Part shown: positions 8,515-56,795 of the stretch, in pieces | Layout of the letters: every line of letters starts with the position of its first letter | Position numbering within the stretch: the first letter of the stretch is position 1 | DNA from: an uncultured Gammaproteobacteria bacterium | GTDB taxonomy: Bacteria; Pseudomonadota; Gammaproteobacteria; UBA9214 | DNA length: 64,000 nucleotides | Assembly (NCBI GenBank): GCA_963748215.1 | Contig: CAVVHS010000009.1 | Location: 352,001-416,000, forward strand | Direction of reading: 5' to 3' | Program-made: the position numbers and the translations under genes | The notes under the pieces: model-generated | Seen by the model: the letters and a program-made list of their open reading frames with translations, nothing else | What the model was told of the DNA's origin: nothing | Database searches by the model: none

Positions 8515-8825
8515 GGGTGTTTATGGCGTATTCATAAGTATGCCGCCGATTGGAAAGGCAGAAATCCCTGCGGGGATTTTGCGGGACTCGGTTGTGCATT
8601 GTTATGCATCGTGGTGCACAGTGTGCAACGGGCGCCACGGTAAGTTATTGAAGTGAAAGGCTGAAAAATCGCCTTTCTGTCCATTTAATCCGATGGTCGT
8701 TGGTTCGAGCCGAGGACGACGCAGTCGGCCGAAACAACTGCGTCGCATCAGCGACGCTGACCCCGAAGGGGCGAGAGCGCAGCCCGAGTAATCCTTCACG
8801 ACCCACCCTTTAATCAAGTTAGTAA
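8515..8825 (+). repeat. att-like repeat copy 1: GCGGGA direct repeats + IHF-like site + tRNA-Lys 3' half with 82-nt T-loop insert
   Basis: TTTAATCCGATGGTCGTTGGTTCG[8708-8789]AATCCTTCACGACCCACC; homologous to the copies at 10.2, 23.4, 48.5 and 56.5 kb. Confidence 0.9.
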
Positions 8826-9021
8826 CAGCTAGATTTCAGCGCTCTTTTCATGTAGACGTTATATAGCCGAGTTACCCACCGACAGGCGTGACTGGCGGAA
8901 CAGAACCAGAACTCGAACATCGAGATACCACTCCATGCGAATGATTCACAGACAGGGAGTCATATAACCCGAAACGTTCATGAGGTAGTGTAACGTGGAG
9001 CAAAATGTTGGAGGTACTGGA

Positions 9022-10137
9022 ATGACCAGGTGCTGGATAACAGTAGTCGGATTGGCGCTGCTCACCTGCGGTGTCGCCGCCGCGCAGGATGCTGCAGTGC
9101 TTGAGAGTGACAAGGCACGGCTAAGTTACACCCTCGGCATGAATTTCGGGAACCGGCTCCAGGACCAGTCGATGGCGGTGGACTCAGAATTCAGCATTCA
9201 GGAATTCAGGGATGCCCCGACCGGCGGCAAGACGCTGCTGACCGAAGCGGATGTACAAAGCATCCACGCCGGACAGCCAGCCAAGCTGAAGCAGCAGCAG
9301 AATGCCTTGCAGGACGACAAACGGTTACTGAATAAACAGACAGGGGAAGCGTTTCTTGTCGCAAACAAGGACACGGAGGGCGTCATAACCCTCAAGAGCG
9401 GTCTGCAATACAAGATCCTCGAGGCTGGTCATGGCGACAAGCCCACCCGCGATGACACGGTCGTAGTCCACTACCGTGGGGCCCTGGTCGACGGGTCCGA
9501 GTTCGATAGTAGCTACCAGCGTGGCCAGCCGGCGACCTTCGCCGTCAATCAGGTCATCCGGGGCTGGGGTGAAGCCCTGCAACTGATGCCGGTAGGATCG
9601 AAGTGGCAGCTCTTCATTCCTCCGCACCTTGCCTACGGCACGCGCGGCACGGGCCACCAGATCGGTCCCAACGCGACACTGATTTTCGAGGTGGAACTGC
9701 TTGCCATTAAAGGTCCGCCTGGCGGAGCTGCCCGGGTCCCTGCAAGCATCGATACGGCTGCCGTGACCGATAATCTCACGGATATCCAGGCATCGTTCAA
9801 GCTGGACCCGCGACTCACCCGGAGTTTGTACATGGGCGAGCGCTGGGTTACGCCGCCCACCTTTGCCAGTACTCACCATGCGGGGGATGAGTACACGCTG
9901 GAGTTGCGGGTACATGGTATCGATGACCGGGGTCGGCGCATTCCAGTCGATCCCGAGTGGATACCCTCCGACCCTGATATGGTGGTCTTGTCCTCCGTAC
10001 GGGGTGATAAGATCAAAATAACCGTGAAGCATGCCGGGGTGAGCACGCTGAACGTGTCGGCGCTCGGATTTACCAAGAAATTGCTCATCAAGGCGACAAA
10101 TGTTGGTAATGCCATTCAGGTAGAAATATCCCAGTAA
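9022..10137 (+). CDS. FKBP-type peptidyl-prolyl isomerase (FkpA/Mip-like) with an extra C-terminal domain
   Basis: Signal peptide, SGLQYKIL, VHYRGALVDGSEFDSSY, IGPNATLIFEVELL; GGAGG RBS at 9010. Confidence 0.9.
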   Translation: MTRCWITVVGLALLTCGVAAAQDAAVLESDKARLSYTLGMNFGNRLQDQSMAVDSEFSIQEFRDAPTGGKTLLTEADVQSIHAGQPAKLKQQQNALQDDKRLLNKQTGEAFLVANKDTEGVITLKSGLQYKILEAGHGDKPTRDDTVVVHYRGALVDGSEFDSSYQRGQPATFAVNQVIRGWGEALQLMPVGSKWQLFIPPHLAYGTRGTGHQIGPNATLIFEVELLAIKGPPGGAARVPASIDTAAVTDNLTDIQASFKLDPRLTRSLYMGERWVTPPTFASTHHAGDEYTLELRVHGIDDRGRRIPVDPEWIPSDPDMVVLSSVRGDKIKITVKHAGVSTLNVSALGFTKKLLIKATNVGNAIQVEISQ

Positions 10138-10166
10138 CAGGATTGGTCAGCAGTGCAGGTTGCACC

Positions 10167-10238
10167 GTGTGTATTGCGAATTGCTGTTCAGGCGGCTTCG
10201 GCAGCTGGTAAAGACAGTGGCCATGAGATTTCCGACTG
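10167..10238 (-). mobile_element. Right-end fragment of an rve-type IS
   Basis: Similar to the IS ends at 18639 and 36760 (tgtgt..gcgaattg...caggc...atgagatttcc). Confidence 0.6.
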
Positions 10239-10239
10239 G

Positions 10240-10597
10240 TGGAAGCCGGAAATCCTTGCGGGACTTTTTGCGGGACTCGGTTATGCATCGTCCTGTCTCG
10301 TGGTGCAGAGTGTGCAACGGGCGCCACGGTAAGTTATTGAAGTGAAAGGCTGAAAAATCACCTTTCTGTCCTTTTAATCCGATAGTCGTTGGTTCGAGCC
10401 GAGGACGACGCAGTCGGCCGAGACAACAGCGTCGTATAGGCGACGCTGACCCCGAAGGGGCGAGGGCGTAGCCCGAGTAATCCAACACGACCCACCATTA
10501 AAGGGGATTCTGCGGGGATTAACCGCAAATTTTCCTCGTTGGTTAAATTCTGCCTGTAGAGAATTCTTGGTTGCGCACCAGTAACAGACTCGAATCA
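10240..10597 (+). repeat. att-like repeat copy 2 (tRNA-Lys 3' half with T-loop insert)
   Basis: CTTTTAATCCGATAGTCGTTGGTTCG[10397-10478]AATCCAACACGACCCACCA; right arm interrupted by the IS at 10598. Confidence 0.92.
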
Positions 10598-11751
10598 TGT
10601 CCTTCCCGAAAATACGTACTGCCTGATATTCTTGACCTTTTTCAGAGACGCTATCAATCTGGTGTCCGCTGTCATTGTTAGTATCCAGAATCATGAAGCC
10701 CATTGTCTGCGCGCTGTTACTGCTGGTGTCTACTGTGGTCCGTTCGCGGGTTTCCCTGCAGCTCGAGATTGTGGCACTGCGACATCAACTTGCCGTGTAT
10801 CAGAGATCAACCAAACACCTGCAGATTAGCTCCGAAGACCGTATTCTCTGGTCGTGGTTCGCGCGCCGCTGGTCGGGGTGGTGTGATGCGCTGGTTTTTG
10901 TCCAGACAGGGACTGTGATTGCCTGGCAGCGTAAACGTTATCGCGATCGTTGGGCCAAATTGAGCAAGCATGGCAGGCCCGTTAGACCGCCGGTATCAGA
11001 ACAAATCAAGGCGTTGATCCGCAAGATGTCGGCAGCCAATATCAGCCGGGGTTCACCACGGATTGTCGGGGAGCTACACAAGCTCGGCATCGATGTTGCT
11101 AAATCAAGCGTGGAGAAGTACCGGGTGCGGCCCAGTAAGCCATCCTCTCCGACGTGGAAGGCTTTTCTGAATATTCATCTCAGGGACCTGGTGTCCATTG
11201 ATTTCTTCGTGGTGCCAACCGTGAGAAACATCGCGCTGTTAGTTTTGGTGGTACTCGCACATCATCGTCGCAGGGTTGTGCACCTCAATGTCACGGAGCA
11301 TCCGACCGCCCTGTGGACAGGTCAGCAGATCATTGAAGCATCCCCTGGGATACGGCACCGAAATATCTACTGCGGGACCGAGATGCTGTCTATGGAAGCC
11401 AATTCCAGAAACGCGTCCAAAGCATGGGTATCGAAGAGGTGCTCTCGGCGCCGCGAAGCCCCTGGCAGTATGCATTTGTGGAACGCGTCATTGGCAGCAT
11501 CCGGCGAGGTCGTCTGGATCATGTCGTTGTGTTGAACGATTGTCATTTGAAACGAATGCTGACGTGTTATTTCAACTATTACCATCACTGGCGCACGCAT
11601 CTTTCGCTGGGAATGGACAGTCGCGGGTCGCGATCTGTGCAGTCACCAGACCTTGGAAAGGTAGTACAATTTCCAGAAGTCGGTGGTCTACATCACCATT
11701 ATGAACGGTTGGCGGCATGATAGGGTGTGATACGAGTTTTCAGGAAGGACA
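10598..11751 (+). mobile_element. IS481-like insertion sequence with frameshifted rve (DDE) transposase (about 10693-11720)
   Basis: 21-bp imperfect terminal inverted repeats tgtccttcccgaaaatacgta / tacgagttttcaggaaggaca; SIDFFVVPT, SPWQYAFVERVIGSIRR, GGLHHHYERLAA. Confidence 0.85.
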
Positions 11752-12248
11752 TCTTTCCTGACCTGGGGCGGGGGCAAAGCGGACCGCGAAAAAGAAGCCG
11801 GCCCCGAAAACCCTCATATCCGTGCGACGGACAGGCCGAAAAAGCACAAAAATGGGGGGTTCCCACCGGTAACGGCGAAATCCGGGCCAATTTTGTGGCG
11901 GCCCTGGGGCTGGGTTGGCCTTCAACTGCATCCAGGGAAGGGTTAGGCGTGACTGGGCCTGATATGCGCTGCGTGTTTATGAGGACATTAAAAGATTTTG
12001 CTGTGAGAATTCACACTTTTCCGGAAGCTCGGCTACCATAGGGTAGCAGCGCAATGGGGTATTCGAAACACACGATTGCACGTAGGCTTTAACCCTGTGG
12101 CATGGTTGCTGTCATACACCTGAGTAGAACTTTTTGTCCGTTGATCGATCTACTTAATTCGAACGTCCGGGTCAGTGGCTGATGCTTGAGGCGGGCACTC
12201 CGTCTCGGTGTGGTTCGTATAAACAGCTAACACAATGAGGATAATTTA

Positions 12249-13101
12249 ATGTTCACCAGCAATCCCTTTTCCGAGCTTTCGGCATCTATATCACCCATAG
12301 TCATGCAGGGGTACGTCATCTTGATGGTCCTGCTGGTCATAGGCGGAACTGTACTTGATATGATTCACAAGAAAAGTGCGCAGTACTTTTTCGAGAATGC
12401 GAAAAAAGCGAAAAAGAGCGCGAAACGGTCTGTGGGCACTGGTGAAAAGGCATCAATTGCCGTTCAAGGTGCTGGCTAATGAAGTGTTAACTTCCGGTGA
12501 ATTCTGCAACATAAAACGCAGGCTTTCCCATCTTTTGACCATGTATGGCTTCATTATTTTCGTCGCAACGACCGCCATTATGATTTTTGCCTATCCGACG
12601 CCGGCGACGCCTACGCCAGCCATCCTGCCGCAACTGTGGCATATCGGCGCACTGATGCTGGCTATTGGTGGATACTGGTTCTGGTTCTTTATCCGCGTTG
12701 ATGTGTCTGCGGAAGGCCTTTCGTGGTATCGCTTCGAACGTACGGATTTGTTTATTGTCTCGCTGCTCACTACTGCGACATTCGGATTAATCTGGTCCTA
12801 TACGCAGTCGCAGGGCATTGCCGGATGGTCAACCCTGGTCTTCGTTTTGTTCATCGTCTCAAGCACGATGCTTTTTGGCAGCGTATTCTGGTCCAAGTTC
12901 GCACATATGTTCTTCAAGCCTGCCGCTGCTTTTCAGAAACGTGTTACCCGTGCCGATGGTTCAAGAGAGAATTTACCTGCTGATTACGATCTGACGGATC
13001 CTGCAGTACAGGCAAAATTTCCGGATATCCCGGAATATATGGGCAAGAACCCAGCTTACATGGGGCATGGTATCAAGCGTGAGTCAGCAAACCACTACTA
13101 A
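12249..13101 (+). CDS. aprM: Adenylylsulfate reductase membrane anchor AprM (+1 frameshift near 12467)
   Basis: Multi-TM protein with RRLSHLLTMYGF and WSKFAHMFFKP directly upstream of aprBA. Confidence 0.85.
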
Positions 13102-13142
13102 CATTCATTCAATTACCGTTACAGGAATAGAGAGAATATATT

Positions 13143-13625
13143 ATGCCAACTTTCGTATATATGACTCGTTGTGATGGTTGTGGCCAGTGCGTTGATATCT
13201 GTCCATCTGACATCATGCACATCGATAAAACACTTCGTCGTGCTTACAACATTGAACCTAACATGTGCTGGGAATGTTATTCCTGCGTAAAAGCCTGCCC
13301 TCACCACGCGATTGATGTGCGTGGTTATGCAGATTTCGCTCCACTGGGTCACTCGGTACGCGTGCTCCGTGATGAGGAAAAAGGCACGATTGCGTGGCGC
13401 ATCAAGTTCCGCAACGGCAAAAAAGACATGGATCTTCTGGCGCCTATCACAACCAAACCCTGGGGCACCGCAATTCCCCAGCTGTCCGAAGAAGCAGCAC
13501 CAAGTAACGAAATGCGTGACAGTGAGCTGTTGTTTAACGAGCCCAAGTATATCCGCCTGGATGAAGGTGGCTTGCACACACTTGAGTCAAATGGCCTGAA
13601 ACTGAAAGAAGGGGTGTACTACTAA
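13143..13625 (+). CDS. aprB: Adenylylsulfate reductase beta subunit
   Basis: MPTFVYMTRCDGCGQCVDICPSD...CWECYSCVKACP; two 4Fe-4S motifs. Confidence 0.97.
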   Translation: MPTFVYMTRCDGCGQCVDICPSDIMHIDKTLRRAYNIEPNMCWECYSCVKACPHHAIDVRGYADFAPLGHSVRVLRDEEKGTIAWRIKFRNGKKDMDLLAPITTKPWGTAIPQLSEEAAPSNEMRDSELLFNEPKYIRLDEGGLHTLESNGLKLKEGVYY

Positions 13626-15491: not shown

Positions 15492-15540
15492 GGTAATAGC
15501 CGAGTAAATATCAAGATTAATTTCTACTTGTCTTTGAAAT

Positions 15541-15574
15541 AAAGACCAGCATATTGTTTGTTGGTCTTTTTTTT
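15541..15574 (+). terminator. Probable intrinsic terminator after aprA
   Basis: aaagaccagc...gttggtcttt hairpin followed by a T-run. Confidence 0.65.
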
Positions 15575-15637
15575 CCATAGTTTAGTAGTATGCGGCCTTT
15601 GTTCGATCGATAGTCCTGCGAAACTTATATGTTTTAA

Positions 15638-16003
15638 GTGAACAATAGAATGATGAATATTATTGAAAAAACAGATGAAGAGATATTGGCGCTCGCTAAC
15701 CCAATGTGGGCTGATCTTGTTAAATACTCGAATGAACAAAACTACGGTGCTTTCACCCGACATTTCGCAGCAGCTATGCTGATGGGTGCAAATGAAATCG
15801 AGATGGGCAAACAGTTTGCAAGAAGTGAATTGACAAAGAACCTGTCTGAAAATTACGAATATCTTGGCATAATACGCCGTGGTGAACATGTAACGGTTTT
15901 ATATAAACAAAGACATACCAAGAAAGAGGGCGAGTGGCTGGGCAGGCTGGTGCTGGGTTATGAAAAGGACAAGGTAAAAATATTTGGTGCTACGCTGTTC
16001 TAG
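15638..16003 (+). CDS. Hypothetical protein (apr-associated)
   Basis: 121-aa ORF, co-oriented within the apr cluster. Confidence 0.7.
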   Translation: MNNRMMNIIEKTDEEILALANPMWADLVKYSNEQNYGAFTRHFAAAMLMGANEIEMGKQFARSELTKNLSENYEYLGIIRRGEHVTVLYKQRHTKKEGEWLGRLVLGYEKDKVKIFGATLF

Positions 16004-16035
16004 GGCAGCTTTATCGATAACAGGTTTTTCTGGTT

Positions 16036-17720: not shown

Positions 17721-17844
17721 AGGCAAGTCACGTTTTCTGACAACCACTCAGATGGAGGCTAATGAAAAAGGCTACGTTGGCTATAAAACTACCTGGGAAG
17801 CATTCCAGAAAGAAGTACCATACAAGACCCCCAAGAAGCCTTGA
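17683..17844 (+). CDS. Small 53-aa basic protein, not in the ORF track
   Basis: AGGAG RBS at 17670; MSDAPKTRPKVPEGKSRFLTTTQMEANEKGYVGYKTTWEAFQKEVPYKTPKKP; followed by a GC hairpin. Confidence 0.7.
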   Translation: MSDAPKTRPKVPEGKSRFLTTTQMEANEKGYVGYKTTWEAFQKEVPYKTPKKP

Positions 17845-18174: not shown

Positions 18175-18591
18175 TTAAATACGATTAGAAAGCTGGTAAT
18201 CCACATTAATAAAAGCGCCAATATCTGCCAGGAAACGAATCGTTCTGGCGCCGAAACCAACATCGGGTGCTGTTTCGTTTTTATCGACTGACAAAACCAG
18301 GACCACGCCAATTCGGGGTGATAAATTATGGCTTTTTATCACTTCAAGGATCTTTTCCTTGACCGGTTCAATTTGCTTGATAAGTTCGTTCGTCAAATCA
18401 TAAACGTCCACATCATCAGTAATCGTTTCCGTAGATAACTCCCATGAACTGATCACGGGTTTGTCCAATCCGCTGCTTGCACCGGAAGCATCGACTGCGG
18501 TGGGTTCTATGCCAAGCAGGCGAGTGATGTCATCGGGATTGAAATGATAGCCACTTAGTGTGAAGTAGGCCCTTCCTTTATTAGAAGCCAA
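18175..18591 (-). CDS. DUF4279 domain protein
   Basis: AYFTLSG..FNPDDITRLLGIEPT...FLADIGAFINVD pattern. Confidence 0.75.
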   Translation of the reverse strand: MASNKGRAYFTLSGYHFNPDDITRLLGIEPTAVDASGASSGLDKPVISSWELSTETITDDVDVYDLTNELIKQIEPVKEKILEVIKSHNLSPRIGVVLVLSVDKNETAPDVGFGARTIRFLADIGAFINVDYQLSNRI

Positions 18592-18638
18592 GATATTACC
18601 CTGATCAATTGATTGTAAATATGATGGGTGATTATAGC

Positions 18639-19725
18639 GTGTGTGTGGCGAATTGTTACACAGGCTGCTGCGGGCACCTGGTATAGCTCACGGCAATGAG
18701 ATTTCCAACTGAGTTTGTTGAGATCCGCACGGTGGATAATGGCTTCACCACTGATTTCTGACGGTGTATTGCCGTCGAGTGGATTGTGCACACGATGAGC
18801 GTTGTAATACTGCCGAAAGTTTTCCAATTTCCTCTCCAGGTCGCTGGCGTTCCAGAAGAGTGCCTGGTCAAGATATTCGCGGCGAATGGTCCTGATCAGC
18901 CATTCGACGAAGGAATGCGATAACGGTACGTACGGAACGGGTTTGATCTCTTCGACATTCATGATGCGAAGATTCGCTTGCCATCGGTGATACAGGAATA
19001 AAGGGTCATTGTCAGAACTGAGGTAGTGTGGAATACCTCTGGGTAGAGGACGCCTTGTTGAACATGCGACAAAGGGCAATACCATCGACATCGCCCGTAT
19101 GGACGCCAAAGCCGATGATGCGCCGAGTGAACTGATCCATGATGACGAGTACCCGGTGGCTCTTCGAAAGAATGGATTCACACCGAAACTGATCAATGCT
19201 CCAGAGGCTGTCCTTCGTGTGTTCTGGAAAAGACAGCCATGATGGCCCATTGTCATCGGAGCTTGGCCGGTAATGTGCGGCGAGGACACGCCGCACTACA
19301 TCTTTATCGATGTCGATTACGAACGCGTTGTTGATCTGTTGTGCGATTCGTGGGCATCCGAATCGAGGATTGCGTTGCTTCAGTTCGACGTTAGCCTGGA
19401 TGGGTTCCTGCGATGGGCCCTTGGGACCTGGCTTGCTTTTGCTGCCAGATGAATACAGCCGTTGATAATTTCGCTTCTTGAGAATGTCGTCAAATGCCAA
19501 AAGCGTCGATGGCCGAATAATCACGTCGACCCGCTGAATGCGGCATGGGCTGAGAAACAGCGACCAGAAGCCGAGCAGGAGTCTATCAAGTGCCGAAAGA
19601 TTGGGTGCGCGTCTCCTGGCGCGGTTCATAACCAGGAGCTGCTGCTTCATGAGGAGGCTGTCAGCGACGACAGCCCCCGCCCCGCCGGGCCCCGGCAGTA
19701 ACCTGCTCAGCATAAAGTGGAGATG
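18639..19725 (-). mobile_element. Degenerate rve/integrase-core IS transposase remnant
   Basis: Fragments KPGPKGPS...NPRFGCPRIAQQI, DSLWSID, VPLSHSFVEWLIRTIRREYLD across frames. Confidence 0.85.
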
Positions 19726-23245: not shown

Positions 23246-23349
23246 AGGCGGCACTATTGATATCCTGTGTATGGCGAATTACTGCTTATGCAGCCACAGG
23301 CAGCTGATGAAGGCCTGGGCAAGGGATTTCCGGCAGAATCGACTGTTCA

Positions 23350-23910
23350 CAGTTCGGGACTTTTACGGGACACAGTCCTGCACAACTATGCACCGTTATG
23401 CAATCGAGGCAACGGACGCCCCAAATTACCCGTATAAAAACAATCATATACATGCCAACTCTGTCACTCATAATGCTGGGGTCGGTGGTTCGAGCCGAGG
23501 AAGACGCAGTCGGCCGGGACAACCGCGTCGCATTAACGGACGCTGACCCCGAAGGGGCGAGGGCACAGCCCGAGTAATCCAACACGACCTACCATTAAAA
23601 CAACTAGTTACCTCTTGTATTTCTTCCCACAAAAATTGATTGTGGGGATTTTGCAGGGATTAACCGCATACTTTCTCGTTGGCTTGATTTCACCTGTAAT
23701 AAATTCAATTGGTTGCGAATCAGTAACCGACTCGAACTGTCGTTTCCTGGACAAAACATTCGATGCTTGTCGTCGAATGTCGCAGAGTGGCGAATTCGGA
23801 CATACGAAACTGATATCGGAACAACTTCGCTGCATTGTTCAGCCTATGGGGAAATTCCATTTCCTGGCGCCGCTATTTTCAGCGGCGAATTGCCGAGCGT
23901 TCAGGCCTCT
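23350..23910 (+). repeat. att-like repeat copy 3: chimeric tRNA-Met/tRNA-Lys 3' half with T-loop insert plus conserved right arm
   Basis: TCACTCATAATGCTGGGGTCGGTGGTTCG[23493-23575]AATCCAACACGACCTACCA; 23637-23908 matches 48802-49063. Confidence 0.9.
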
Positions 23911-25521: not shown

Positions 25522-26343
25522 ATGGCCCGGTCGATGTACAGCCAGCACTGGTACCGGGTGGCGGACATCAGGCCTCGGCTGCGCGGACATATCAGCCTGC
25601 ACCGTCATTACTACCGTGGTAACCGTTGCTATCTCCTGCAGGATGAGGCCACCGGTGCATTTCATCGCTTCGGCCCCGAAGTCTACGAAATGATCGGCCA
25701 GATGGATGGCGTACGCACGGTCAACGAGATCTGGGAAGAGACACTCGACCGGCTTGGCGATGACGCGCCGGGCCAGGAAGAAACGATGCACCTGCTCGGA
25801 CAGCTGCATGCCGCTGATATCCTGCAGTGTGATCTGACGCCGGATGCGCTCGAGGTGTTTCACAGGCATCGTCACAAGCAGCGCCAGGACTGGAAGCAGC
25901 GCGTGCTGAATCCGATGTCGTTACGGCTGCCGTTGTGGGACCCGGACCGTTTCCTGTTACGCTGGCTGCCGTACCTGCGCCCGGTGTTCACCTGGGCCGG
26001 GCTGGCCGTGTGGCTGCTGGTCGTGGCCACGGGCGTGGTGCTGGCCGGCCTGCACTGGGAATCCATCACGGCAGACATCGTTGACCGGGTGCTGAATCCC
26101 TGGAACCTGGTCATCATGTTTTTCACCTATCCCTGCATCAAGCTGCTGCACGAGTTCGGGCATGCCTTTGCCACGCGCCTGTGGGGTGGAGAGGTGCACG
26201 AGATGGGCATCATGTTCCTGGTGCTCATGCCCATCCCCTATGTCGATGCGACCGCGTCGGCCGGCTTTCGGGAGAAGCACCGGCGCCTGGCGGTGAGTGC
26301 GGCGGGCATGATGGTCGAGCTGTTTCTCGCACCGCCGCGGTGA
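25522..26343 (+). pseudogene. PqqD-like/M50 site-2 protease, truncated by a deletion
   Basis: KLLHEFGHA zinc motif, PYVDATAS, AAGMMVELFL then an abrupt junction with adhesin repeats. Confidence 0.8.
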
Positions 26344-29300
26344 TCAACGTGAATAATGCCCCAACCGGCAGCGTGACGATCGACAACATCACTCCTGCCG
26401 AGGGTGACACGCTCACCGCATCCAACACCCTGGCCGATGTGGACGGCCTCAGTGGTCCGGTCAGTTACCAGTGGTACCGTGACGGGCTGGCGATCGGCGG
26501 CGCGACAGGAACAACGTATACCACTACACAGGCCGACGTGGGCGCAGTGATTTCGGTGGCTGGCAGTTACACCGATGACCAGGGCACAGTCGAGAGCGTG
26601 AGCAGCGCGGGCACCGCCGCGGTCACCAACGTCAATAATGCCCCGACGGGTGCGGTGACGATCGACAACACCACGCCGGCCGAAGGCGATACGCTCACGG
26701 CATCAAACATCCTGGCCGATGTCGATGGACTTAGTGGCCCGATCAGCTACCAGTGGTACCGTGATGGCGTGTCGATCGGTGGGGCCACAGCCTCCACCTA
26801 CACGACGGTCCAGGCCGACGTCGGTGCAGTAATCACTGTAATAGCGAGCTATACCGACGACCAGGGTACGGCCGAGAGCGTGAGCAGCACCGGTACGTCA
26901 GCAGTCACCAACGTCAACAATGCCCCGACGGGTTCCGTCAATATCGGTGGTACGCCGACCGAGGACCAGATGCTCACGGCCTCGAACACCCTGGCGGATG
27001 TGGATGGTATGGGGCCGGTTTCGTACCAGTGGTACCGGGATGGTGTCGCCATCGTCGGCGCAACCGCGAGCACCTATATCCTCGGTGATGCCGATGTGGG
27101 TACGACGATTACGGTCGCGGCCAGCTACACCGACGGTCAGGGTACGAATGAGAGCGTGACCAGTGCCGGTGTGGGTCCGATCGCCAATGTTAATGACGTG
27201 CCGACCGGCAGCGTCACGATCGACAACACTACGCCGGCCGAGGGCGACACGCTGACGGCTGCCAACACCCTGGCCGATGTCGACGGCCTGAGCGGGGCGA
27301 TCAGTTACCAGTGGTATCGTGACGGTGTGGCGATCGGTGGGGCTGCCAATAGTACCTATACCACCGTACAGACGGATGTGGGTGCCGTAATCAGCGTGGT
27401 CGCCAGCTACACCGACGACCAGGGTACACCCGAGAGTGTCAGCAGTACGGGTACCGCGGCAGTCACCAACGTCAACAATACCCCGACGGGTTCCGTCAAC
27501 ATCGGCGGTACGCCGACCGAGGACCAGACGCTCACGGCCTCGAACACCCTGGCGGATGTGGACGGGATGGGGCCGGTCTCGTACCAGTGGTACCGGGATG
27601 GTGTCGCCATCGTCGGCGCGACCGGAAGCACCTATACCCTGGGTGATGCCGATGTCGGTACGACGATGACGGTCGCGGCCAGCTACACCGACGGGCAGGG
27701 TACGAGTGAGAGTGTGACCAGCGCCGGTGTGGGTCCGATTGCCAGCGTCAACGATGTACCAGCAGGCCAGCCGGTCATTACCGGTACGGTAGCCGAGGAC
27801 CAGGTGCTCACGGCAGACACCTCCGGCATCAGCGATGCGGACGGGCTGGGTACCTTTGGTTACCAGTGGTATCGCGATGGCATGGCCATCGGCGGTGCGA
27901 CGAACTCCACCTATACCCTGGGTGATGCCGATGTCGGCGCCACGATATCCGTCGAGATCAGTTACACCGACGGGCAGGGAACCAGTGAGGCGATTACCAG
28001 CGCCGGTGTGGGTCCGGTTGTGAACGTGAACGATGCACCGGCTGGGCTACCGGTTATTGCCGGCACACCTGTGGAAGATCAGATAATCACGGTTGATACA
28101 ACAGGCATCACTGATGCCGACGGCATCAGCGGTGCGTTCAGCTACCAGTGGTACCGCGATGGTGTCGCCATTGCCGGTGCAAATGGCGGGGGCTATATCC
28201 TTGGGGATGCGGATGTTGGCGCAATCATTACCGCTACCGTCAGCTACGTCGATGACCAGGGCGCCAGTGAGTCCGTTTCCAGTGCCGGTGTCGGCCCGAT
28301 TGCCAATGTCAATGATGCGCCGACCGGCAGCGTTTTTATCGACAACATGACACCGGCTGAGGGCGACATGCTCACCGCGTCAAACTTCCTCGTTGACGCC
28401 GATGGCCTGAGCGGTGCGATCAGTTACCAGTGGTACCGGGATGGCATCGCCATCGGCGGTGCAACAGCCTCCACCTACACCAGCGTGCAGGCAGATGTGG
28501 GCGCCATGATCAGCGTGGTGGCAAATTACACCGACGACCAGGGCACCAGCGAGAGTGTCAGCAGCGCCAGCACGGCGGCGGTCACCAACGTCAACAATGC
28601 CCCGACCGGCAGCGTCATCATCGATAACATGACACCGGCCGAAGGCGACACCTTGACCGCCAGCAACACCCTGGCGGATGTCGATGGCCTGAGTGGCCCA
28701 ATCGGTTACCAGTGGTATCGCGACGGGGTTGCCATCGGTGGAGCCACCGGCAGTGCCTATACCACCGTGCAGGCCGACGTCGGTGCGGTAATTACCGTCG
28801 TGGCGAGCTACACCGATGACCAGGGCACGGCCGAAAGCATAAGCAGCGCCGGGACCGCGGCGGTCACCAACGTCAACAATGCTCCGACCGGTGCGGTGAG
28901 CATCAGCGGCACACCGGCCGAGGATCAGACGCTTACGGCCTCGAACACGCTGGCGGATGTCGACGGGCTTGGAGCCATCAGCTACCAGTGGTACCGCGAT
29001 GGTATTGCCATTGCCGGTGCGACTGGAAGCGCCTATACCCTCGGTGACGCCGATGTAGGTGCCACGATAACGGTGGCCGCCAGCTATACCGACGGACAGG
29101 GTACAAATGAGAGTATGACCAGTAACGGAGTGGGTCCGGTGGTCAACGTGAACGATGCTCCAACGGGCAGTGTCACCATCGAAAACCCGACGCCGGCCGA
29201 GGGTGACATGCTGACGGCGAGCAACACCCTGGCAGACGCTGATGGCCTGAGCGGTGCGATCAGCTACCAATGGTACCGGGATGGCGTGGCCATTGCCGGT

Positions 29301-30902
29301 GCCACGGGATCGAATTACACCACAGTGCAGGGAGACGTCGGTAGCGTCATTACGGTGGTGGCAAGCTACACCGACGATCAGGGCACGGCCGAGAGTGTGA
29401 GCAGTACGGACACAGCGGCAGTCACCAACGTCAACAATGCCCCGACGGGTTCAGTGAGCATCAGCGGCACGCCGGCAGAAGACCAGGCGCTCACCGCCTC
29501 TAACACGCTGGCGGATGTGGATGGTATGGGACCGGTCTCCTATCAGTGGTATCGGGATGGTGTTGCCATTACCAGCGCGACCAGGTCCTTCTATACCCTG
29601 GGAGATGCTGATGTGGGCGCGATGATTACCGTCGCCACCAGCTATACCGACGGGCAGGGTACCAGTGAGAGCGTGACCAGTGCGGGCGTAGGTCCGGTTG
29701 CCAATGTCAATGATCTGCCAGGTGGCTTGCCGGCCATCACAGGCATGGCGCAGGAAGACCAGGTCCTGGTCGCCGACACATCCACCATCAGCGATGCTGA
29801 CGGTCTCGGAGCCTTCAGCTATCAGTGGTTGCGTGACGGATCAGCCATAGCCGGTGCCACCGGCAGTACCTATGCCCTGGACGATGCCGACGTCGGTAGC
29901 CAGATCAGTGTGACGACCAGTTACATCGATGCCAAGGGTACTGCAGAGAGCCTGACTTCAGCGCAGACCGCGCCGGTCGCGAATGTGAATGATATTCCGA
30001 CCGGTGCCGTGACGATCGATAACCTGATGCCGGGTGAGGGCGACACCATCAGCGTCAGTCATACGCTGGCGGATGCCGATGGTATCAGCGGCCCGATCAG
30101 TTATCAGTGGTACCGCGGTGGCGTCGCCATTGCCGGGGCAACCGGCATGACCTATACGACCACCCAGGCCGATGTCGGTACTGTCATTACCGTAGAGGCG
30201 AGTTACACCGATGATCAGGGTTTCGCCGAGAGCCAAAGCAGTGTGGGCGCGCTGGTTGCGGGTGTTTTTGTCGACCCCAGTGAAGATACAACTGATGAAA
30301 CAGTTGTGCCGCAAACAGAACCCCCTGTGGTTTTGCGTGACAGCATTGGCGCGACCCCGGTGGGAAATGAAGAGCAATCCGGTGTAATGAAGGAAATAAT
30401 TGCCATCCACGAAGTTGCAGCGGAAGGCGATACCGATTACCGGGTCGATCCGTATCAGTATCTGGACGATGCTGACCTTGAACTGGATGAAGTTCGGAAA
30501 GACAACGTTATAAAACATGCGGTGCGCAGTATTGTCCAGGCCGGGTATCAGATAACCGAGGAGATGCTGCAACTGTTTGATCTTGTACGTATCAAGATGA
30601 GTGAAGTGGACGATCAGCCGGCGAGTGGAGTTATCAAGTCTGTGGGTGGTCTCGCCCTGTCTGTGTCTGCGGGCGTTGTGAGCTGGGTGCTTCGCGGCGG
30701 TGCCCTTGCTGCGAGTATGCTGTCATCAGTCTCTGTGCTGAAAGGGTTTGATCCCTTGCCAGTCATGGACATGAATCCCAAGAAGGGTAACCGTCCCGGG
30801 CATGAAGATGATGCAGACAGTGATGTTGATAATATGTTCGAAGAGGCGGATCTGGAAGAGAAGGGAGAAGCTTCGCAGACAGCAGGGAAAGCGGATAAAT
30901 GA
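26330..30902 (+). CDS. Giant repetitive surface/adhesin protein, C-terminal part (N-terminus lost)
   Basis: 14 repeats of 92-94 aa (NVNxAPTG...YQWYRDG...SYTD); C-terminal WVLRGGALAASMLSS..FDPLPV motif. Confidence 0.8.
26345..30250 (+). repeat. 14 intragenic tandem repeats of 276-282 bp
   Basis: YQW codons at 26466, 26748, 27024, 27306, 27582, 27861, 28143, 28425, 28707, 28983, 29265, 29541, 29820, 30102. Confidence 0.92.
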
Positions 30903-36759: not shown

Positions 36760-37550
36760 TGTGTGTGGCGAATTGATGTTCAGGCGACAGCGTGTAGTTG
36801 GAAAAGTCCATGGCAATGAGATTTCCATCGGAATTGCTTGAGGGTGGCACGGCGGATCACGGTTTTGCCACGGATTTCTGACGTTGCATCACCGTCAAGC
36901 GACGTGTGGACGCGATGGGCGTTGTAATACTGTCTGAATGCTTCCAGTTTTCATTCCAAGTCACTGGCATTCCAGAAGAGCATTTGATCAAGGTGCTCAC
37001 GACGAATGGTCCCGATCAGCCGTTCGACGAAGAGATGCGATAGCGGTGTATACGGGACGGTCTTGATCTCATCGGCACCAAGAATCTTCATATTCGCATG
37101 CTATTGGTGATACAGAAATAGTGGATCGTTAACAGAGCTGAGATATTTTTGGGAACCTCTGGATGAGATAGCGGAGTTGAACATGCGACAAAGGGCGATA
37201 CCGTCGACATCACCGGCATGGATACTAAAGCCGATGATGCGCGGAGTGAACTGATACATAATCACGAGCACCCAACGGCTTTTCAAAAGAATGGATTCGC
37301 ACCGGAACAGGTCAATGCTCCAGAGGCTATCCTTGCCGTGCCCAGGGAAAGTCAGCCATGACGGTCCACCGCCATCGAAACCAGGCCGGTAGTGTGCAGC
37401 GAGGACACGTCTAATGACATCTCTATATGTTAATTCCAAAGGCTTTATTGATCTGCTGTGCGATCCGTGGGCAGCCAAACCGTGGGTTACGTTGCTTCAT
37501 TTTGACAATGGCCTGCATGAGTTCCTGTGATGGACCTTTGGGGCCGGGTT
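36760..37550 (-). mobile_element. Degenerate rve IS remnant, same family as 18639-19725
   Basis: DSLWSIDLFRCESILLKS, DPLFLYHQ; same terminal tgtgtggcgaattg. Confidence 0.85.
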
Positions 37551-47518: not shown

Positions 47519-47528
47519 GGAGTTCGTC

Positions 47529-48245: not shown

Positions 48246-48319
48246 CGTTGTCAGGTGGCCTGACTGTGGGTGGTGGCGGCGCACGCCGGCGGGTTACGAG
48301 CCATGTGATAGACGCCTGC

Positions 48320-48480
48320 ATTGGTTTGCCCGGCATGTTCCAGCGCATTCGCAGAGCGGTTTGCGCGCTCCATAAAGTACGAATGCCAGGATTGCATGAT
48401 TTTGTTCAGGAAAGCAGCGTTTCGCCGGGCACCCTGAGAATATCTTGCGCATCACCATGCCGAATGCAATCGTCAGGGTG
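48320..48480 (+). mobile_element. rve transposase fragment
   Basis: Translates to SAFAERFARSIKYEC..CMILF...EYLAHHHAECNRQG. Confidence 0.6.
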
Positions 48481-49063
48481 TCTATGGCGAATAGAAAATT
48501 ATGCCGCCGACTTGAATAGCAGAAATTCACTGCGGAAGTTTTGCGGAGCTCGGTTCCGCATCGTCCTGCATCGTGGTGCACCGATTGCAACGGGCGCTAC
48601 GGTAAGTCATTGAAATAAAGAGCGTAAAAACGCGCTTTCTGTCCTTTCAATCCGATGATCGTTGTTCGAGCCGAGGGCGACACAGTCGGCCGAGACAACA
48701 GCGACGCTGACCCCGAAGGGGCGAGGGTGCAGCCCGAGTAATCCAGCACGCCCCACCATTCATACAAAGACTTATCCCCCTGCTGTTAGATCCGCAACCA
48801 CTGATTGCGGGACTTTTGCGGGGATTGGCCGCAAATCTATAATTACGCCTATAGAAAATACAATTAGTTGCGAGTCAGTAACTGATTCGAACTGTCGTTT
48901 TATGGACAAAAAAATCCGATGTTTGACCTCGAATGTCGCTGAGTGGCGAATTCGGACATACGAAACTGATATCGGAACAACTCCACTGCAATGTTCAGCC
49001 TATGGGTTATTACATGTCCTGGCGCTACTATTTTCAGCGGGGAATTGCCGAACGCTCAGGCCT
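48476..49063 (+). repeat. att-like repeat copy 4 (insert has lost one hairpin loop)
   Basis: CTTTCAATCCGATGATCGTTGTTCG[insert]AATCCAGCACGCCCCACCA ending at 48758; left arm like copy 1, right arm like copy 3. Confidence 0.9.
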
Positions 49064-49116
49064 GTCCTTGGCGAATTCCTATTCATGCAACAATTGGCCT
49101 CTGGGGGGTGTTTGTG

Positions 49117-51587: not shown

Positions 51588-51607
51588 CGACGTCCGGGAG
51601 GTGAATC

Positions 51608-51733
51608 ATGCCTGGGACAGACGTCGGATGGGGGTTTGACATGGGGTTAGGCATGTGGGTGTTCTGGATACTGCTGATCGTGATCATCGTGGTCCTGGTC
51701 AAGGTGATCAGCCCTGGTTCCGTATCACGGTAA
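51608..51733 (+). CDS. Small membrane peptide (possibly the N-terminus of a truncated SHOCT-type protein)
   Basis: GGAGG RBS; MPGTDVGWGFDMGLGMWVFWILLIVIIVVLVKVISPGSVSR. Confidence 0.5.
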   Translation: MPGTDVGWGFDMGLGMWVFWILLIVIIVVLVKVISPGSVSR

Positions 51734-51827
51734 TCATCCTCAAAAAACAGCTGATCCCGAAGGTAGGGATTAAGCCACGATGAGCCAGCTTCTGTGTCGG
51801 GGGGTGATTGCCGTGGCAGCACCTGGC

Positions 51828-54800
51828 TCATCGCGGCTCCACCGGGTGATGACTGGGTGTGTGCGGCGACGTGTGCGGCGGCCGGTGCGGCATCTGCTCG
51901 AAATCGTCCGGGTCGGTCCCCAGGCGACGGTCGGTCACCAGCCGGTAGAACAGCGGGATGAAGAAGATCGCCAGGAAGGTTGCCGCCAGCATGCCGCCCG
52001 GCGACACCGGTACCGACAGCGTGGCGCGCCCCGGCGCCGGCACCGGTCGAAATCGCCAGCGGCATGACGCCGAGGATGAACGCCAGCGAGGTCATCAGGA
52101 TCGGTCTGAAGCGCAGCCGCGCCGCCTCCATGGCCGCGGCGCTGGCGGAATAGCCTTCACTCTTTTTGAGCACGGCGTATTCGACAATCAGGATGGCGTT
52201 TTTCGCCGCCAGTCCGAGCAATGTCACCAGACCGATCTGGAAATAGACGTCGTTGTTGAGACCGCGCAGCCAGACGGCGGCCAGCGCACCGAAGGTGCCG
52301 AACGGCAGGGCCAGCTGCACGGCGATCGGCAGCGACCACTTTTCGTACTGCGCGGCAAGGATCAGGAACACCATCAGCACCGCCAGACCCAGGGCGAGGC
52401 CGGAGGTGCCGCTGGAACGTTTTTCCTGGAACGAGGCGGAGCTCCAGTCGTAGCTGAAGTCTTCGGACAGGGTGCGATCGGCGATCGCTCGACGATTGCC
52501 AGTGCCTGGCCGGAACTGATGCCGGGCGCCGAATTGCCAAAGATCTTCACCGCCGGCAGGTTGTTGAAGCGATCCAGCGTTTCCGGACCCGAGGTGTACT
52601 CGACATTGGCGAGTGCCGCGAGCGGTACCATGGGTACCGTCCTGTGCCGGCACGTACAGCGCGCCGATATCCTCCGGCCTGACGCGATAGGCCGGGTCGG
52701 CCGACATCAGCACCTGCCAGGTGCGGCCGAACTTGTTGAAGTCGTTGACATAGAAAGTGCCCAGCGTGGCCGCGACCGTGTTGAACAGCGCGTCGATGTC
52801 GACGCCGAGCAGCTTCGCCCTGTCGCGGTCGACGTCGACATACAGCTGCGGCACCCGCGAGCGCCACAGCGTTAGCGGCTGGACAATGCGCGGGTCCTTG
52901 CGCAGTTCGGCAAGCAGTTGTTCACTGGCGGCGGCGAGGCCTTTGGCCCGCCTTCGCCGCGGTTCTGCACGTACAGCTCGAAGCCGCCGGCGTTGCCGAG
53001 GCCGAAGATCGGCGGCGGACCGAAGGCCAGCACCAGGGCTTCCTGATGCCGGCGGTCTGGCCATGAACAACTCGCCGACCAGTCGCTTGACTGGAGCGCT
53101 GGCGCTCGTCCCAGTGCCGGTGCGGCGACGAAGATGGTCGCCGCGCTGTTGCGGAAGCCGCCGCCGAGAAAATCGAGACCGGTGAACGCCACCACGTGCT
53201 CGGCATCGGGATCGGAACGCATGACAGCGATCACCTCTTGCGTGACCGCCTCGGTGCGGGCGAGGCTGGAACCGTCCGGCAGGAAGACCGCGCCGATGTA
53301 GTAGCCCTGGTCTTCGTCCGGCACCAGCGAGCCCGGTGTGATGTTCCACAGGAACGACCGCCGCGGCGACCATCAACAGGTAGAGTCCGATGGCAAGTAC
53401 TGTCCGCCGCAGCAGGAAATTGACCCCGGCCAGGTAGCCGCCGGTCACATGCGCAAATCCGCGGTTGAAGGCGGCGAAGAAGCGTCCCGGCTGCCGTCCC
53501 TGGTTCCTGAGGATGATCACGGACAGCGCCGGCGTCAGGGTCAGCGCGACGATACCGGAGATCACCACCGCGATCGAGATGGTCACCGCGAATTGCCGGT
53601 ACAGTTCGCCGGTCAGGCCGCCGAGGAAGGCGATCGGCACGAACACCGCGCACAGCACCAGCACGATGGCGATCACCGGCCCGGTGACCTCGTGCATCGC
53701 CTTGATCGCCGCTTCGCGCGCGGCAGCGCTTTTCCTCGTGCATGATGCGCTCGATGTTCTCCAGCACCACGATGGCGTCGTCGACGACGATGCCGATCGA
53801 CAGCACCATGCCGAACAGGGTGAGGGTGTTGATCGAGTAGCCGAGCAGCTGCAGGCCGGCGAAGGTGCCGATCAGCGATACCGGCACGGCGATCACCGGA
53901 ATCAGCGTTGCCCGCCAGTTCTGCAGGAACATGTAACACCACCAGCAACACCAGCAGCATCGCTTCGCCCAGCGTCTTGAGCACTTCGCGGATCGATACC
54001 TCGACAAAGCGGGTGGTGTCGTAGGGAACGCTGTAGGTCAGGCCATCGGGAAAATCGCTCTGCCAGTCCGGCGACCGTCGCCTTGACTTCGTCGCCCACC
54101 GCCAGCGCATTGGCACCCGGCTGCAGGAAGATGCCGACCAGGGTCGCCGGCTTGCCGTTGATAGCGGCCGATGAAGTCGTAGTCCTTCGAGCCGAGCTCG
54201 ACGCGCGCGACATCCTTCAGGCGCAGCAGCGAGTGCCGTCCGGCTCGGCGCGCACGATGATGTCGCTCGAATTCTTCCGGGGTCGGACAGGCGGCCCTGG
54301 CGTGTGATGGTGTAGACCAGCTCCTGTCCCTCGCCGATCGGCGGCTGGCCGATCTTGCCGGCGGCGAACTGCGCGTTCTGCTCGTTGATGGCGCTCGCTG
54401 ACTTCGGTGGCAGTGACGCCGAGTTGCGCCATGCGGTCCGGCTTCAGCCAGATGCGCATGGCGTAGTCCTTGGCGCCGAAGATCTGCACGTTGGTGGTGC
54501 CGGGGATGCGCTTCAGGCGATCCAGCACGTTCAGGGTGACGTAGTTGCTGGTGTAGATGTCGTCGAAGCGGCCGTCCGGCGAGAGGAAGGCGAGCACCTG
54601 CAGGAAGGCCGACGAACCCTTCTCGACGGTCACGCCCTGGCGGCGCACTTCTTCCGGCAGGCGTGGCTCGGCCTGCTTGACGCGGTTGTTGACGTTGAGC
54701 GCGGCCTGGTCGACGTCGGCGCCGATTTCGAAGGTGACCTGAATCTCCAGCACGCCGTTGGACGCCGAGGTCGAGCTCATGTACATGCAGGTCCTCGACG

Positions 54801-55019
54801 CCGTTGATCGGCATTTTCCAGCGGTGCGGCGACCGTTTGCTCGAGGATCTGCGCCGAAGCGCCGGGGTAGATCGCCCGCACCGTGACCACCGGCGGTGCG
54901 ATTTCCGGGTACTGCGCGATCGGCAGGATGCGCATCGACAGCACGCCGGCCAGTACGAGGAAGATCGACATCACCGCCGCGAAGATCGGACGGTCGATAA
55001 AGAAGCGCGACAGCACCAT
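51828..55019 (-). CDS. HAE1 RND efflux permease (AcrB/MexB-like), many frameshifts
   Basis: [50 protein letters not shown] in successive frames. Confidence 0.88.
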
Positions 55020-56263
55020 CAGGGCGCCTCGTTGTCGATGGTCTGCGTCGTGGCGTCCTGTGCGGGGGGGGTGGTCCCGGCCGGTTGCGGCATGATCGGC
55101 ATCCCGGGGAAGAATATGCGCGCCGTGCCGTCAGTTACCACCTGGTCGCCCCGGGTGAGACCCGAGCGGATCACCCAGAGTCGTTCGACGCCTTTGGTGC
55201 CGGATTTTTCCACCCACTGGCCGACCTCGACCGGCTTTGGCTGCGCGACTGTCATGCCATTCTCACCCTGGCCGGCGACGTAAACGAACTTGCCGCTGGC
55301 GTCCTCCTGTACTGCCCGCTGCGGTACCGCCAGGGCGCCGGGAAGGATTGCGCCTTCGATCCGGACCCGCACGAACTGGCCGGGACTGAGCTTCGCGTCA
55401 GGGTTTGGCAGTGTTGCCCGAACCGAGAAGGCGCCGGTTTGCGGATCGGTGCGGTAATCATTGAAATCGACCTGTCCGGCCAACGGGTAGGGCGTGCCGT
55501 CGGCGAGCCGCACCTCGACCCGGGTCTGATCGGGCGGGGACATGACCAGGCTGCCATCGGCCAGTTGTCGGTCGATGGTCAATCGATCGTTTTCGGCGAT
55601 GGAGAAATTGACATACAACGGATCGATCTGCGCGAGCCGGGCCAGCGCCCCGGATGTCGGTGACACCAGCGCACCCTCGACCTGCAAGGCGCGTCCGATG
55701 TGGCCGGAGATCGGCGCAGTGACGTTGGTGTAGCCGAGTTCGAGCGTTGCCTGTGTCAGTTCCGCATCGGCGACGGCGACGGCGGCGCGGTTGAGATCGC
55801 GGTTCGATACGGCATCATCCAGTTCGCGCTGGCTGACGGTCTGTTTGTTGGCGAGTGGTGCGAGACGTTTTACATCGCGTTCGGCCTGAACCAGGCGTGT
55901 CCGGGCCTCCGCCAGCGCCGCTTCCGCCGCCTGCTTGCGCGCGGCGAACGGCGCGGCGTCGATGCGGAACAGGGACTGGCCGGCATCGACGCGGCCGCCT
56001 TCCTCGAACAGCCGTTGCTCGATCAGTCCGGTGATCTGCGGTCGGATCTCGATTTCGCGCGAAGCTTCCAGTCGGCCGACATACTCGAATTGTACAGGCA
56101 GGTCCTGTGGTTGCAGTTCGAGCACGGTGACCTGTTGCGGGGGTGACGCACCGCCGCCTTCCGAGGGTTGTGATTCACTCTTGCCGCAACCGGCCAGTTG
56201 CAGTGCGAGAAGGGCGCTCGCCAGGGTTGCCATAACGGCGAAGCTGCGCAGAACTGTCATCAT
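55019..56263 (-). CDS. RND efflux periplasmic adaptor (lipoprotein)
   Basis: LAGC lipobox, [23 protein letters not shown]. Confidence 0.92.
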
Positions 56264-56466
56264 GCCGGAGTCTCCTCGACGGGATTCATCCGGCTCAGTT
56301 CCCGGATGCGGTCGTTGCGGTCCACTTGTGTCGCCGCAGGGACGCTGTGAGTTCTGCGCTGCCAAAAACATGGATATCCATCCCGGGTAACCGCTTGAGC
56401 CTGTTGGCCTCTTCAGGAAGATTGTACTGTACCATCCGGAAATTCTTCCATGGCACGAAGTGCAGG

Positions 56467-56795
56467 GCGAATTTCAGCCCAGGCGGAAGGGTGGCAGCGT
56501 CTAGACCGTGGCATTGTGTGTTCCATCTGGCGGAAGCTGATGAATCCATGCAGGTATTTTTCGGGACCCGGTTATGCACCGTCCTGCATCGTGGAGCCTT
56601 GGTCGAAACAGTAAATTATTGAATAAAAAGGCTTATAAATTGCCTTTCTGTCCTGTTGATCCGATGGTCGCTGGCTCGAGCCGCGGCCGACGCCGTCGGT
56701 CGGGACATCGGCATCGCACAAGCGATGCTGACCCCGAAGGAGCTAAGGTGCGGCCCGGGTAATCCAGCACGACCCACCATTTAATCAATATGTTT
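56467..56795 (+). repeat. att-like repeat copy 5 (diverged)
   Basis: TCCGATGGTCGCTGGCTCG[insert]AATCCAGCACGACCCACCA ending at 56779; left flank like copy 2. Confidence 0.85.

Follow-up and report, generated by a model that had tools for sequence, protein, structure and literature searches.

RtT-type cores split the T-loop of displaced tRNA-Lys ends at the seams of a tandem island array in an uncultured gammaproteobacterium

Introduction

RtT repeats have been present in Escherichia coli sequence for decades, and their product is still called a small RNA of uncertain role. We describe members of this family in a new setting: five copies in a 64,000-nt stretch of the genome of an uncultured gammaproteobacterium (GTDB lineage UBA9214; assembly GCA_963748215.1, contig CAVVHS010000009.1, positions 352,001 to 416,000 of the forward strand), referred to throughout as the window. 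Each copy is an insert that interrupts the T-loop of a tRNA 3' portion. Homology identifies the insert as the conserved core of RtT RNA (Rfam RF00391), known from E. coli as the tyrT 178-bp repeat, and it stands here at the seams of island arrays. On balance, we think it probable that the window copies are seams of a tandem array of integrase-type islands behind a tRNA-Lys(UUU) gene, with an RtT core joined to each displaced tRNA-Lys end. What is new is that the core splits T-loops at a fixed point, follows many tRNA types and seams two island arrays of approximately 90-100 kb.

The tyrT repeat is said to have been described originally by Egan and Landy in 1978 and by Bosl and Kersten in 1991. 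A search of the literature for a link of RtT to the T-loop, to DDE proteins, to islands or to integrases found none. Passages of two articles (PMC4986893, PMC3318445, citing Bosl and Kersten 1991) present RtT as an RNA freed from the tyrT transcript. Passages of these two and of two further sources (PMC8092127; bioRxiv 10.1101/2024.07.17.603846) implicate RtT in the response to amino-acid limitation, place Rfam members of the family near other tRNA genes and report RtT in Pasteurellaceae and Thioalkalivibrio. A passage of the preprint (bioRxiv 10.1101/2024.07.17.603846) also records raised coverage of tyrT-rttR in exonuclease-treated 'mobilome' DNA of E. coli K-12 under several stresses, and leaves the cause open; the signal might relate to RtT units that exist as circular or structured DNA.

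Results

Five split T-loops of one layout

The five sites in the window share one layout. A tRNA segment running from the anticodon loop through the 5' strand of the T-stem ends in TTCG; the insert follows; and the sequence resumes with AATCC, the 3' strand of the T-stem, the 3' strand of the acceptor stem and CCA, which is replaced by CCC in copy 1. The structured core of 71-83 nt is placed exactly between the TTCG and AATCC of the T-loop at 5/5 sites. A preliminary description of the window had reported five split T-loops carrying one insert family; all five are confirmed, and there are eight such sites genome-wide. Window junctions 1-5 correspond to R4-R8 of an array of eight junctions (R1-R8). 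The cores are as follows.

8708-8789, plus strand: core copy 1 (junction 1, R4), 82 nt, four hairpins
10397-10478, plus strand: core copy 2 (junction 2, R5), 82 nt; fold -46.5 kcal/mol, z -3.55
23493-23575, plus strand: core copy 3 (junction 3, R6), 83 nt; identity to the other cores 0.86, that of its left part 0.58
48669-48739, plus strand: core copy 4 (junction 4, R7), 71 nt; 12-nt internal deletion, second hairpin gone
56679-56760, plus strand: core copy 5 (junction 5, R8), 82 nt; the most diverged, with compensated hairpin changes; fold -61.4 kcal/mol, z -4.48

Around each core lie further conserved segments: a right arm of about 120 nt upstream, the pseudo-tRNA left part, the displaced tRNA 3' end and, downstream of the seam, a left arm (P') of about 150 nt.

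8561-8808, plus strand: junction 1; right arm 8561-8681, pseudo-tRNA-Lys left part 8682-8707, displaced tRNA-Lys 3' end 8790-8808 (CCC)
10250-10497, plus strand: junction 2; right arm 10250-10370, left part 10371-10396, tRNA-Lys 3' end 10479-10497
10498-10640, plus strand: left arm after junction 2, its start shortened; carries a GGGGATT..GCGGGGATT motif
23345-23594, plus strand: junction 3, chimeric; tRNA-Met-type right arm 23345-23463, tRNA-Met(CAU) left part 23464-23492, tRNA-Lys 3' end 23576-23594
23595-23760, plus strand: left arm after junction 3, from the alignment of arms
48523-48758, plus strand: junction 4; right arm 48523-48642, left part 48643-48668 with one T-stem base missing, tRNA-Lys-like 3' end 48740-48758
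48759-48920, plus strand: left arm after junction 4, from the alignment of arms
56539-56779, plus strand: junction 5, the last of the array, followed by ordinary flank; right arm 56539-56651, left part 56652-56678, tRNA-Lys 3' end 56761-56779

The left arm is present after the tRNA-Lys gene and after 6/8 junctions, and is not conserved after junctions 1 and 5; both arms carry a doubled GCGGG-type motif. A hairpin followed by a T-run lies at 10511-10527, within the left arm after junction 2, and a scan for promoters and terminators gave no decisive signal. The flanks of copy 2 had been likened to tRNA-Lys 3' ends, and they equal the genome's intact tRNA-Lys(UUU) bar one base. The left part of copy 3 is not of tRNA-Lys type: its 27 nt are identical from anticodon loop to T-stem to the tRNA-Met(CAU) gene on contig C8. 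ARAGORN called no tRNA in the window, as expected because the sites are tRNA 3' halves, and an Rfam scan at gathering thresholds called nothing in it.

Relationship to RtT RNA

The preliminary description knew no named family for the insert; one exists. A laxer Rfam scan of this genome's loci matched RF00391 to paralogues of the window copies at 59.4, 52.5 and 48.5 bits (cut-off 45), and the overlapping family RF02902 to copies of a second array on contig C6 at 41.5, 40.5 and 40.1 bits (cut-off 39.8). Within the window, three matches to RF00391 fall below threshold.

8639-8808: junction 1, 31.3 bits
10354-10497: junction 2, 28.7 bits
48627-48758: junction 4, 30.4 bits

The reciprocal search was made with a covariance model (model R1) built from 18 copies of this genome only. 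It matches four sites of the tyrT-tyrV-rttR locus of E. coli K-12 at 61-65 bits (E 2e-15 to 3e-14) and, in all, 13 sites of the K-12 chromosome, at Tyr, Lys/Val, Arg and Pro tRNA clusters. The lysT-lysQ repeats are among them, and the E. coli unit that follows lysQ is laid out in the same way and bears a tRNA-Lys 3' end. The arrangement of RtT, in which TTCG(A) and (T)AATCC enclose the core and a tRNA 3' end runs on to CCA, was found at 5/5 window sites, with CCC in copy 1. The insert is real, beyond chance, and a member of the RtT family in the broad sense of homology. A described family with a known mechanism was what the preliminary description had named as telling against its own proposal; the family has been found, and the known mechanism has not.

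Census of the family

In this genome model R1 finds 34 sites, which adjoin Lys, Arg, Ser, Glu, Gln and Val tRNA ends, and it scores junctions 1-5 at 109.3, 114.3, 103.5, 87.2 and 90.6 bits respectively. Fifteen of the 34 follow an intact tRNA gene (Arg, Gln, Ser, Glu or Val) at distances of up to about 520 nt; eight form the Lys array; nine form the second array, with tRNA-Arg(ACG)-type ends (C6, 807-884 kb); and two are odd cases. The tie of the insert to the T-loop of tRNA-derived sequence, as first described, is borne out by a TA/AATCC-type 3' edge at 30/34 sites and an 18-nt tail ending in CCA after the core at 25/34; at 17/34 the tail agrees over 12 nt, without mismatch, with the 3' end of a live tRNA. 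Elsewhere in the genome the core is often part of exact tandem units of about 170-180 nt, each of which contains, besides GGTTCGA and the core, a terminator, a spacer and a fresh tRNA 3' end. Outside this genome, model R1 matches 35/36 other genomes of the genus and, with stricter filters, 2/24 genomes from other families of the class. The core pattern also picks out four candidate stretches in viral contigs.

The cores group by tRNA type: a hidden Markov model (HMM) of the Lys cores finds only the eight Lys copies (E<=8e-15), the next match having E 0.19. At 16.9, 40.9 and 57.5 kb of C6 (G000:C6, G000 being this genome) stand tRNA-Pro(GGG)-type seams with a core variant at TTCA^AATCC; they are missed by model R1, and the family therefore exceeds 34 copies in this genome.

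Two other arrangements of the core were observed. In the second array (G000:C6:807-899 kb, minus strand, Arg(ACG)-type ends) some cores reach about 200 nt with an extra conserved domain (GGTGAGACC ... GGTCGAGAG ... CTGGCCTGGGCC) that has no Rfam name and that also stands in place of the last hairpin after tRNA-Val. At G000:C8:225164-225267, a nearly complete 5' part of tRNA-Gln(UUG) has a core in its T-loop and precedes the intact tRNA-Gln by about 60 nt, a mirror arrangement in which the unit bears the 5' side of the tRNA.

The tRNA-Lys island array

In the whole genome (3.52 Mb, 9 contigs), nhmmer finds eight full copies of the Lys seam, all on the plus strand of C9 between 317.8 and 408.8 kb (E 1e-65 to 1e-84). 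The sole tRNA-Lys(UUU) gene (G000:C9:310571-310646) is intact, core-free and upstream of all eight junctions, and behind it extends a tandem array of about 98 kb with its seams at the eight junctions. The copies lie 7-98 kb from the tRNA-Lys gene (window copies 50-98 kb), with kilobase-scale cargo between them. The cores of R1 and R2 are identical, as are their flanks over more than 300 nt. A repeated block of tRNA identity that reaches the 3' end stands at the unit borders behind an intact tRNA, as at attachment (att) sites; the uninterrupted shared core of such sites is absent, the block being split by a core of 71-83 nt at 8/8 junctions. The picture is of islands accreted in tandem behind the tRNA gene, their integrases lost.

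Cargo between the window seams comprises a Mrp-type antiporter, an FKBP isomerase, oxidoreductases, a GGDEF/EAL protein, RND and HlyD efflux parts and a P-type ATPase, and array cargo outside the window includes Wadjet, AbiEii and toxin-antitoxin genes. The FKBP unit, between junctions 1 and 2, measures 1.7 kb. The Mrp cargo of junction 1 is bounded in another genome, G018, by an Arg(ACG)-type seam, and cargo therefore moves between arrays. No empty site for the array end was found; homologues of the ADH gene in six other genomes lie in other contexts, without tRNA. The Wadjet (JetABCD-like) defence operon and the AbiEii gene occupy the second island of the Lys array (G000:C9:322-328 kb). Within the window, 26181-30902 holds a 1573-amino-acid open reading frame with tandem repeats of 279-282 nt and matches to Ig-like domains, probably a large surface protein.

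Fold and conservation of the core

The tRNA-sense strand shows a four-hairpin fold. In 18/18 sequences RNAalifold has TTCG paired to CGAG or CGAA at the 3' edge, which closes a loop around the hairpins. Covariation was assessed on 70 matches (63 distinct) from this genome, from 20 loci of relatives and from one metagenome-assembled genome. Pairing was found in 94.5% of 1173 cells, compared with 82.2% in shuffles and at most 54.3% in slid controls, and the covariation score was 0.341 against 0.129, a value reached by 0/500 shuffles, in an alignment that was fitted to the model, which favours pairing. Among the 63 distinct sequences, 11/19 pairs change on both sides. U:G pairs are frequent at two positions (35/63 and 30/63 sequences), which argues that it is the tRNA-sense strand that folds, as RNA or as single-stranded DNA.

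Mean pairwise identity over the eight Lys seams (28 pairs) shows the core and the 3' end to be better conserved than all surrounding segments.

Core: 0.86
3' end: 0.92
Left part: 0.78
Right arm: 0.62
Left arm: 0.48

Constraint is not strict: copy 4 lacks one hairpin, and in genome G030 the core of the same terminal junction (junction 5) is cut to about 41 nt.

Position of the exchange

The live tRNA is core-free and every seam has a core; a simple crossover in the anticodon loop with a core-bearing element is therefore the wrong model. Junction 3 is instructive. On C8 the tRNA-Met-type arm and left part form core-free seams, and at junction 3 the core and 3' end are Lys-type. This chimera, with a Met left part and a Lys right part, places an exchange in the T-loop or in the core. 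Core-free junctions of the same island family occur at tRNA-Met (C8:211.8k and 207.2k) and once at tRNA-Arg (C6:884.3k), where classic units follow the seam; the core is therefore not required for the arms. Halves of tRNA-Pro and tRNA-Arg occur both core-free and core-bearing.

The sequencing evidence consisted of assembled contigs, those of RNA runs among them. Some contigs skip exactly 8708-8789 and could be taken for excision products. We rejected them as such: the loose end of these 'skips 82' joints continues into the D-arm of plain tRNA-Lys, so they are contigs of the plain tRNA-Lys gene, and a cassette-loss joint would look the same in these contigs. An 84-nt contig of an RNA library spans 8690-8773, with carry-over of DNA possible.

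Recombinases and other mobile genes

Co-occurrence with a nuclease or recombinase had been suggested as a check; PF00589, DDE and RAYT-like genes were examined, and none co-occurs consistently with cores. A frameshifted tyrosine integrase converges on tRNA-Arg(ACG), its coding end forming the arm motif, and a similar remnant follows tRNA-Pro. In relatives, tyrosine integrases adjoin core-bearing ends in a few cases; in G008 one such integrase converges on a core-bearing pseudo-end, and 14 nt separate its stop codon from the pseudo-CCA.

Two candidate partners were tried and rejected. A 356-amino-acid HTH+rve DDE protein proved to be a widespread, unrelated gene of insertion sequence (IS) type (IS481/IS3-like). 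Its intact copy (G000:C6:889192-890274) comes right after tRNA-Pro and interrupts the integrase remnant; the window holds a frameshifted copy right after junction 2 (10714-11717) and a fragment (48318-48479). The gene is found at 86-95% identity across many metagenome clusters and in several phyla, and at its loci in other genomes a core was present at 1/78, any tRNA at 11/60 scanned and the arm motif beside 1/25. The second candidate, a RAYT-like Y1 gene, belongs to an 843-bp unit present at two places outside the window and not beside cores (G000:C9:315959-316801 and 333292-334134, 99.9% identical); its 245-amino-acid Y1 (IS200-like) protein scores 70 against the NCBIfam REP tyrosine transposase (cut-off 80). 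Apart from these, window 18555-19289 and 36760-37426 are 75-81% identical, and the former encodes a 244-amino-acid protein with a match to the integrase core rve_3, an IS-type gene in two of the islands.

Discussion

In the account that we favour on balance, each seam begins with the right arm of one island, passes through a pseudo-tRNA left part (up to TTCG), the core and a displaced tRNA-Lys 3' end (AATCC to CCA), and gives way to the left arm of the next island. Each incoming unit would supply a fresh tRNA 3' end by exchange in or beside the T-loop, and such an exchange would leave the live tRNA core-free and the displaced 3' end still attached to its core. The core and its ...CCA tail may then form one unit, transcribed by read-through from genes upstream and then cut back, by the enzymes that mature tRNA 3' ends, to a stable tRNA-tailed RNA, as has been reported of E. 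coli rtT. Each copy would retain an attB-like tRNA end, open to more islands without damage to the tRNA. The exchange and the RNA processing are both steps that we infer; the core itself may act at the RNA level, serve as a DNA site or be inert.

Several observations weigh against this account. None of the five window copies reaches the RF00391 cut-off, junctions 3 and 5 being unmatched at E<=1; the 5' antisense arm is missing from all five (across the eight Lys copies no antisense run exceeds 3-4 bp, against 8-12 bp in 7/25 copies examined, and the RF00391 alignment flags non-standard pairs); and none lies directly after a tRNA gene, in contrast to 15/34 copies in the genome. Because they fall short in score, 5' arm and position, we call the window copies an RtT variant. 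Neither simple crossover model fits every junction, and no single rule was found for all seams; had the exchange lain to the left of the core, junction 2 should carry a Met-type 3' end, and it does not. PF00589 has no match in C9:310-409 kb or in the C6 array, the five matches in the genome all lying elsewhere. Conservation of core and 3' end could reflect gene conversion within the array rather than selection, the fitted covariation alignment leans towards pairing, and the shortened terminal core of G030 means that constraint is not universal.

Rather than primarily an sRNA gene, RtT might be the cis-acting end of a family of insertion units specific for the T-loop, from non-coding units of 0.17 kb up to islands of 25 kb, whose folded strand directs an enzyme of the host or of the element to exchange DNA at TTCG^AATCC. 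The folded sense strand would present the split halves of the T-loop, and classic units would pair those halves with an antisense copy of the intact target. We hold this to be unlikely, if worth stating: were it true, it would explain RtT-punctuated tRNA operons and tRNA-linked island arrays across Gammaproteobacteria.

The preliminary description leaned towards an autonomous element, and the core could indeed be its own tiny non-coding mobile element, entering TTCG^AATCC of any T-loop and surviving only in dispensable pseudo-tRNAs. The fixed position in T-loops of at least seven tRNA types would suit such an element, as would the better conservation of the core than of its left flank, the tRNA-Pro and tRNA-Arg halves with and without core, and junction 3, where an arm and left part that are core-free at their home locus on C8 join a Lys-type core. 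Against it, the cores sort by tRNA type, with the Lys-core HMM confined to the eight Lys copies. Target duplication is absent, as is any linked transposase or nuclease, given the single core among 78 DDE loci and RAYT-like units that lie outside the window, and classic units bring core, terminator, antisense arm and fresh tRNA 3' end as one block. The idea in this form is not sustained, and we rate it as quite improbable.

We would give no greater credence to the proposal that the cores are neutral scars, in which an ancestral RtT-bearing tRNA end was copied along with the seams by unequal crossing-over and gene conversion and has no present role. R1 and R2, identical in core and flanks, the exact duplication of tandem mini-units, the lost hairpin of copy 4 and the 41-nt copy of G030 are what such copying would leave. 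Against it, changes on both sides keep 11/19 hairpin pairs, and the family persists from this genus to E. coli, with Pasteurellaceae and Thioalkalivibrio added by the passages cited above.

The other suggestion of the preliminary description was a built-in part of a recombination site: extruded hairpins, for example, might unite the T-loop halves for an integrase or accessory factor. Williams is said to have placed the strand exchange of T-loop-class integrases, in 2002, at the position where the core lies. Hairpins with GCA or GAA loops, such as those of the core, are very stable in DNA, and the core is present at 8/8 Lys junctions and most Arg(ACG)-type junctions. The core does sit in remnants of recombination sites; it is not an obligatory part of them, since the same island family is core-free at its tRNA-Met and tRNA-Arg junctions. 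E. coli units, moreover, stand in tRNA operons, with no integrase gene annotated in the two E. coli regions examined, and the U:G pairs favour a single folded strand over a duplex site. A built-in role is in our view distinctly doubtful. That the core encodes a short arginine-rich peptide like E. coli tpr is scarcely credible, even with tpr (b1229) inside an E. coli RtT core and a frame in several Lys copies from a variable-loop ATG to the TAA of the 3' edge motif: the ATG is absent in R5 and R6 (window junctions 2 and 3), deletions break the frame in R7 (window junction 4), other tRNA types have no start at that place, and the stem changes are compensatory.

With the RtT cores placed at island seams, an orphan RNA family is linked to the build-up of accessory genes behind tRNA genes, and the junctions offer a concrete site at which to test recombination and RNA processing. 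If the cores only ride along, they keep a use in annotation, where seams delimit cargo units and Rfam's present threshold misses the seams.

Comparison with known systems

The known bacterial tRNA introns are group I introns that sit mostly in the anticodon loop. The insert resembles them in interrupting tRNA-like sequence and differs in its T-loop position, its length of about 82 nt, the absence of a tRNA 5' half from the window copies and the uninterrupted live tRNA; no complete tRNA was found in the window and no intron family in the Rfam scans. REP/RAYT systems and IS200/IS605 ends share GC-rich hairpins with the cores, and the array does contain a RAYT-like Y1 gene. The cores, however, are confined to T-loops and are not the dispersed intergenic repeats that accompany a RAYT gene; the RAYT-like gene is not adjacent to them and none lies in the window. 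AaHKsRNA22 (RF02902, from Aggregatibacter) covers the same core, and three copies of the C6 array pass its cut-off, whereas the window copy reaches no more than 15.8 bits.

Integrase islands that accrete in tandem at tRNA genes leave attL, attR and hybrid junctions, and they include cis-mobilizable elements without an integrase of their own. The array differs in that the repeated tRNA part is split in its T-loop by the core while the live tRNA is unsplit, and in having no intact integrase. The likeness lies in direct repeats of the tRNA 3' part that delimit units behind an intact tRNA, in conserved repeated arm motifs, in integrase remnants that converge on tRNA and in cargo shuffled between arrays. 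From RtT RNA itself, the window copies differ in falling below the Rfam cut-off, in lacking the 5' antisense arm (GGAT-GAGAACC type), in having a pseudo-tRNA left part and in lying between cargo with integrase-type arms. They share with it TTCG(A), the hairpins, a CCCG-loop-GGG hairpin among them, the CGAG/CGAA-TA edge, AATCC and the 3' end of the neighbouring tRNA through to CCA.

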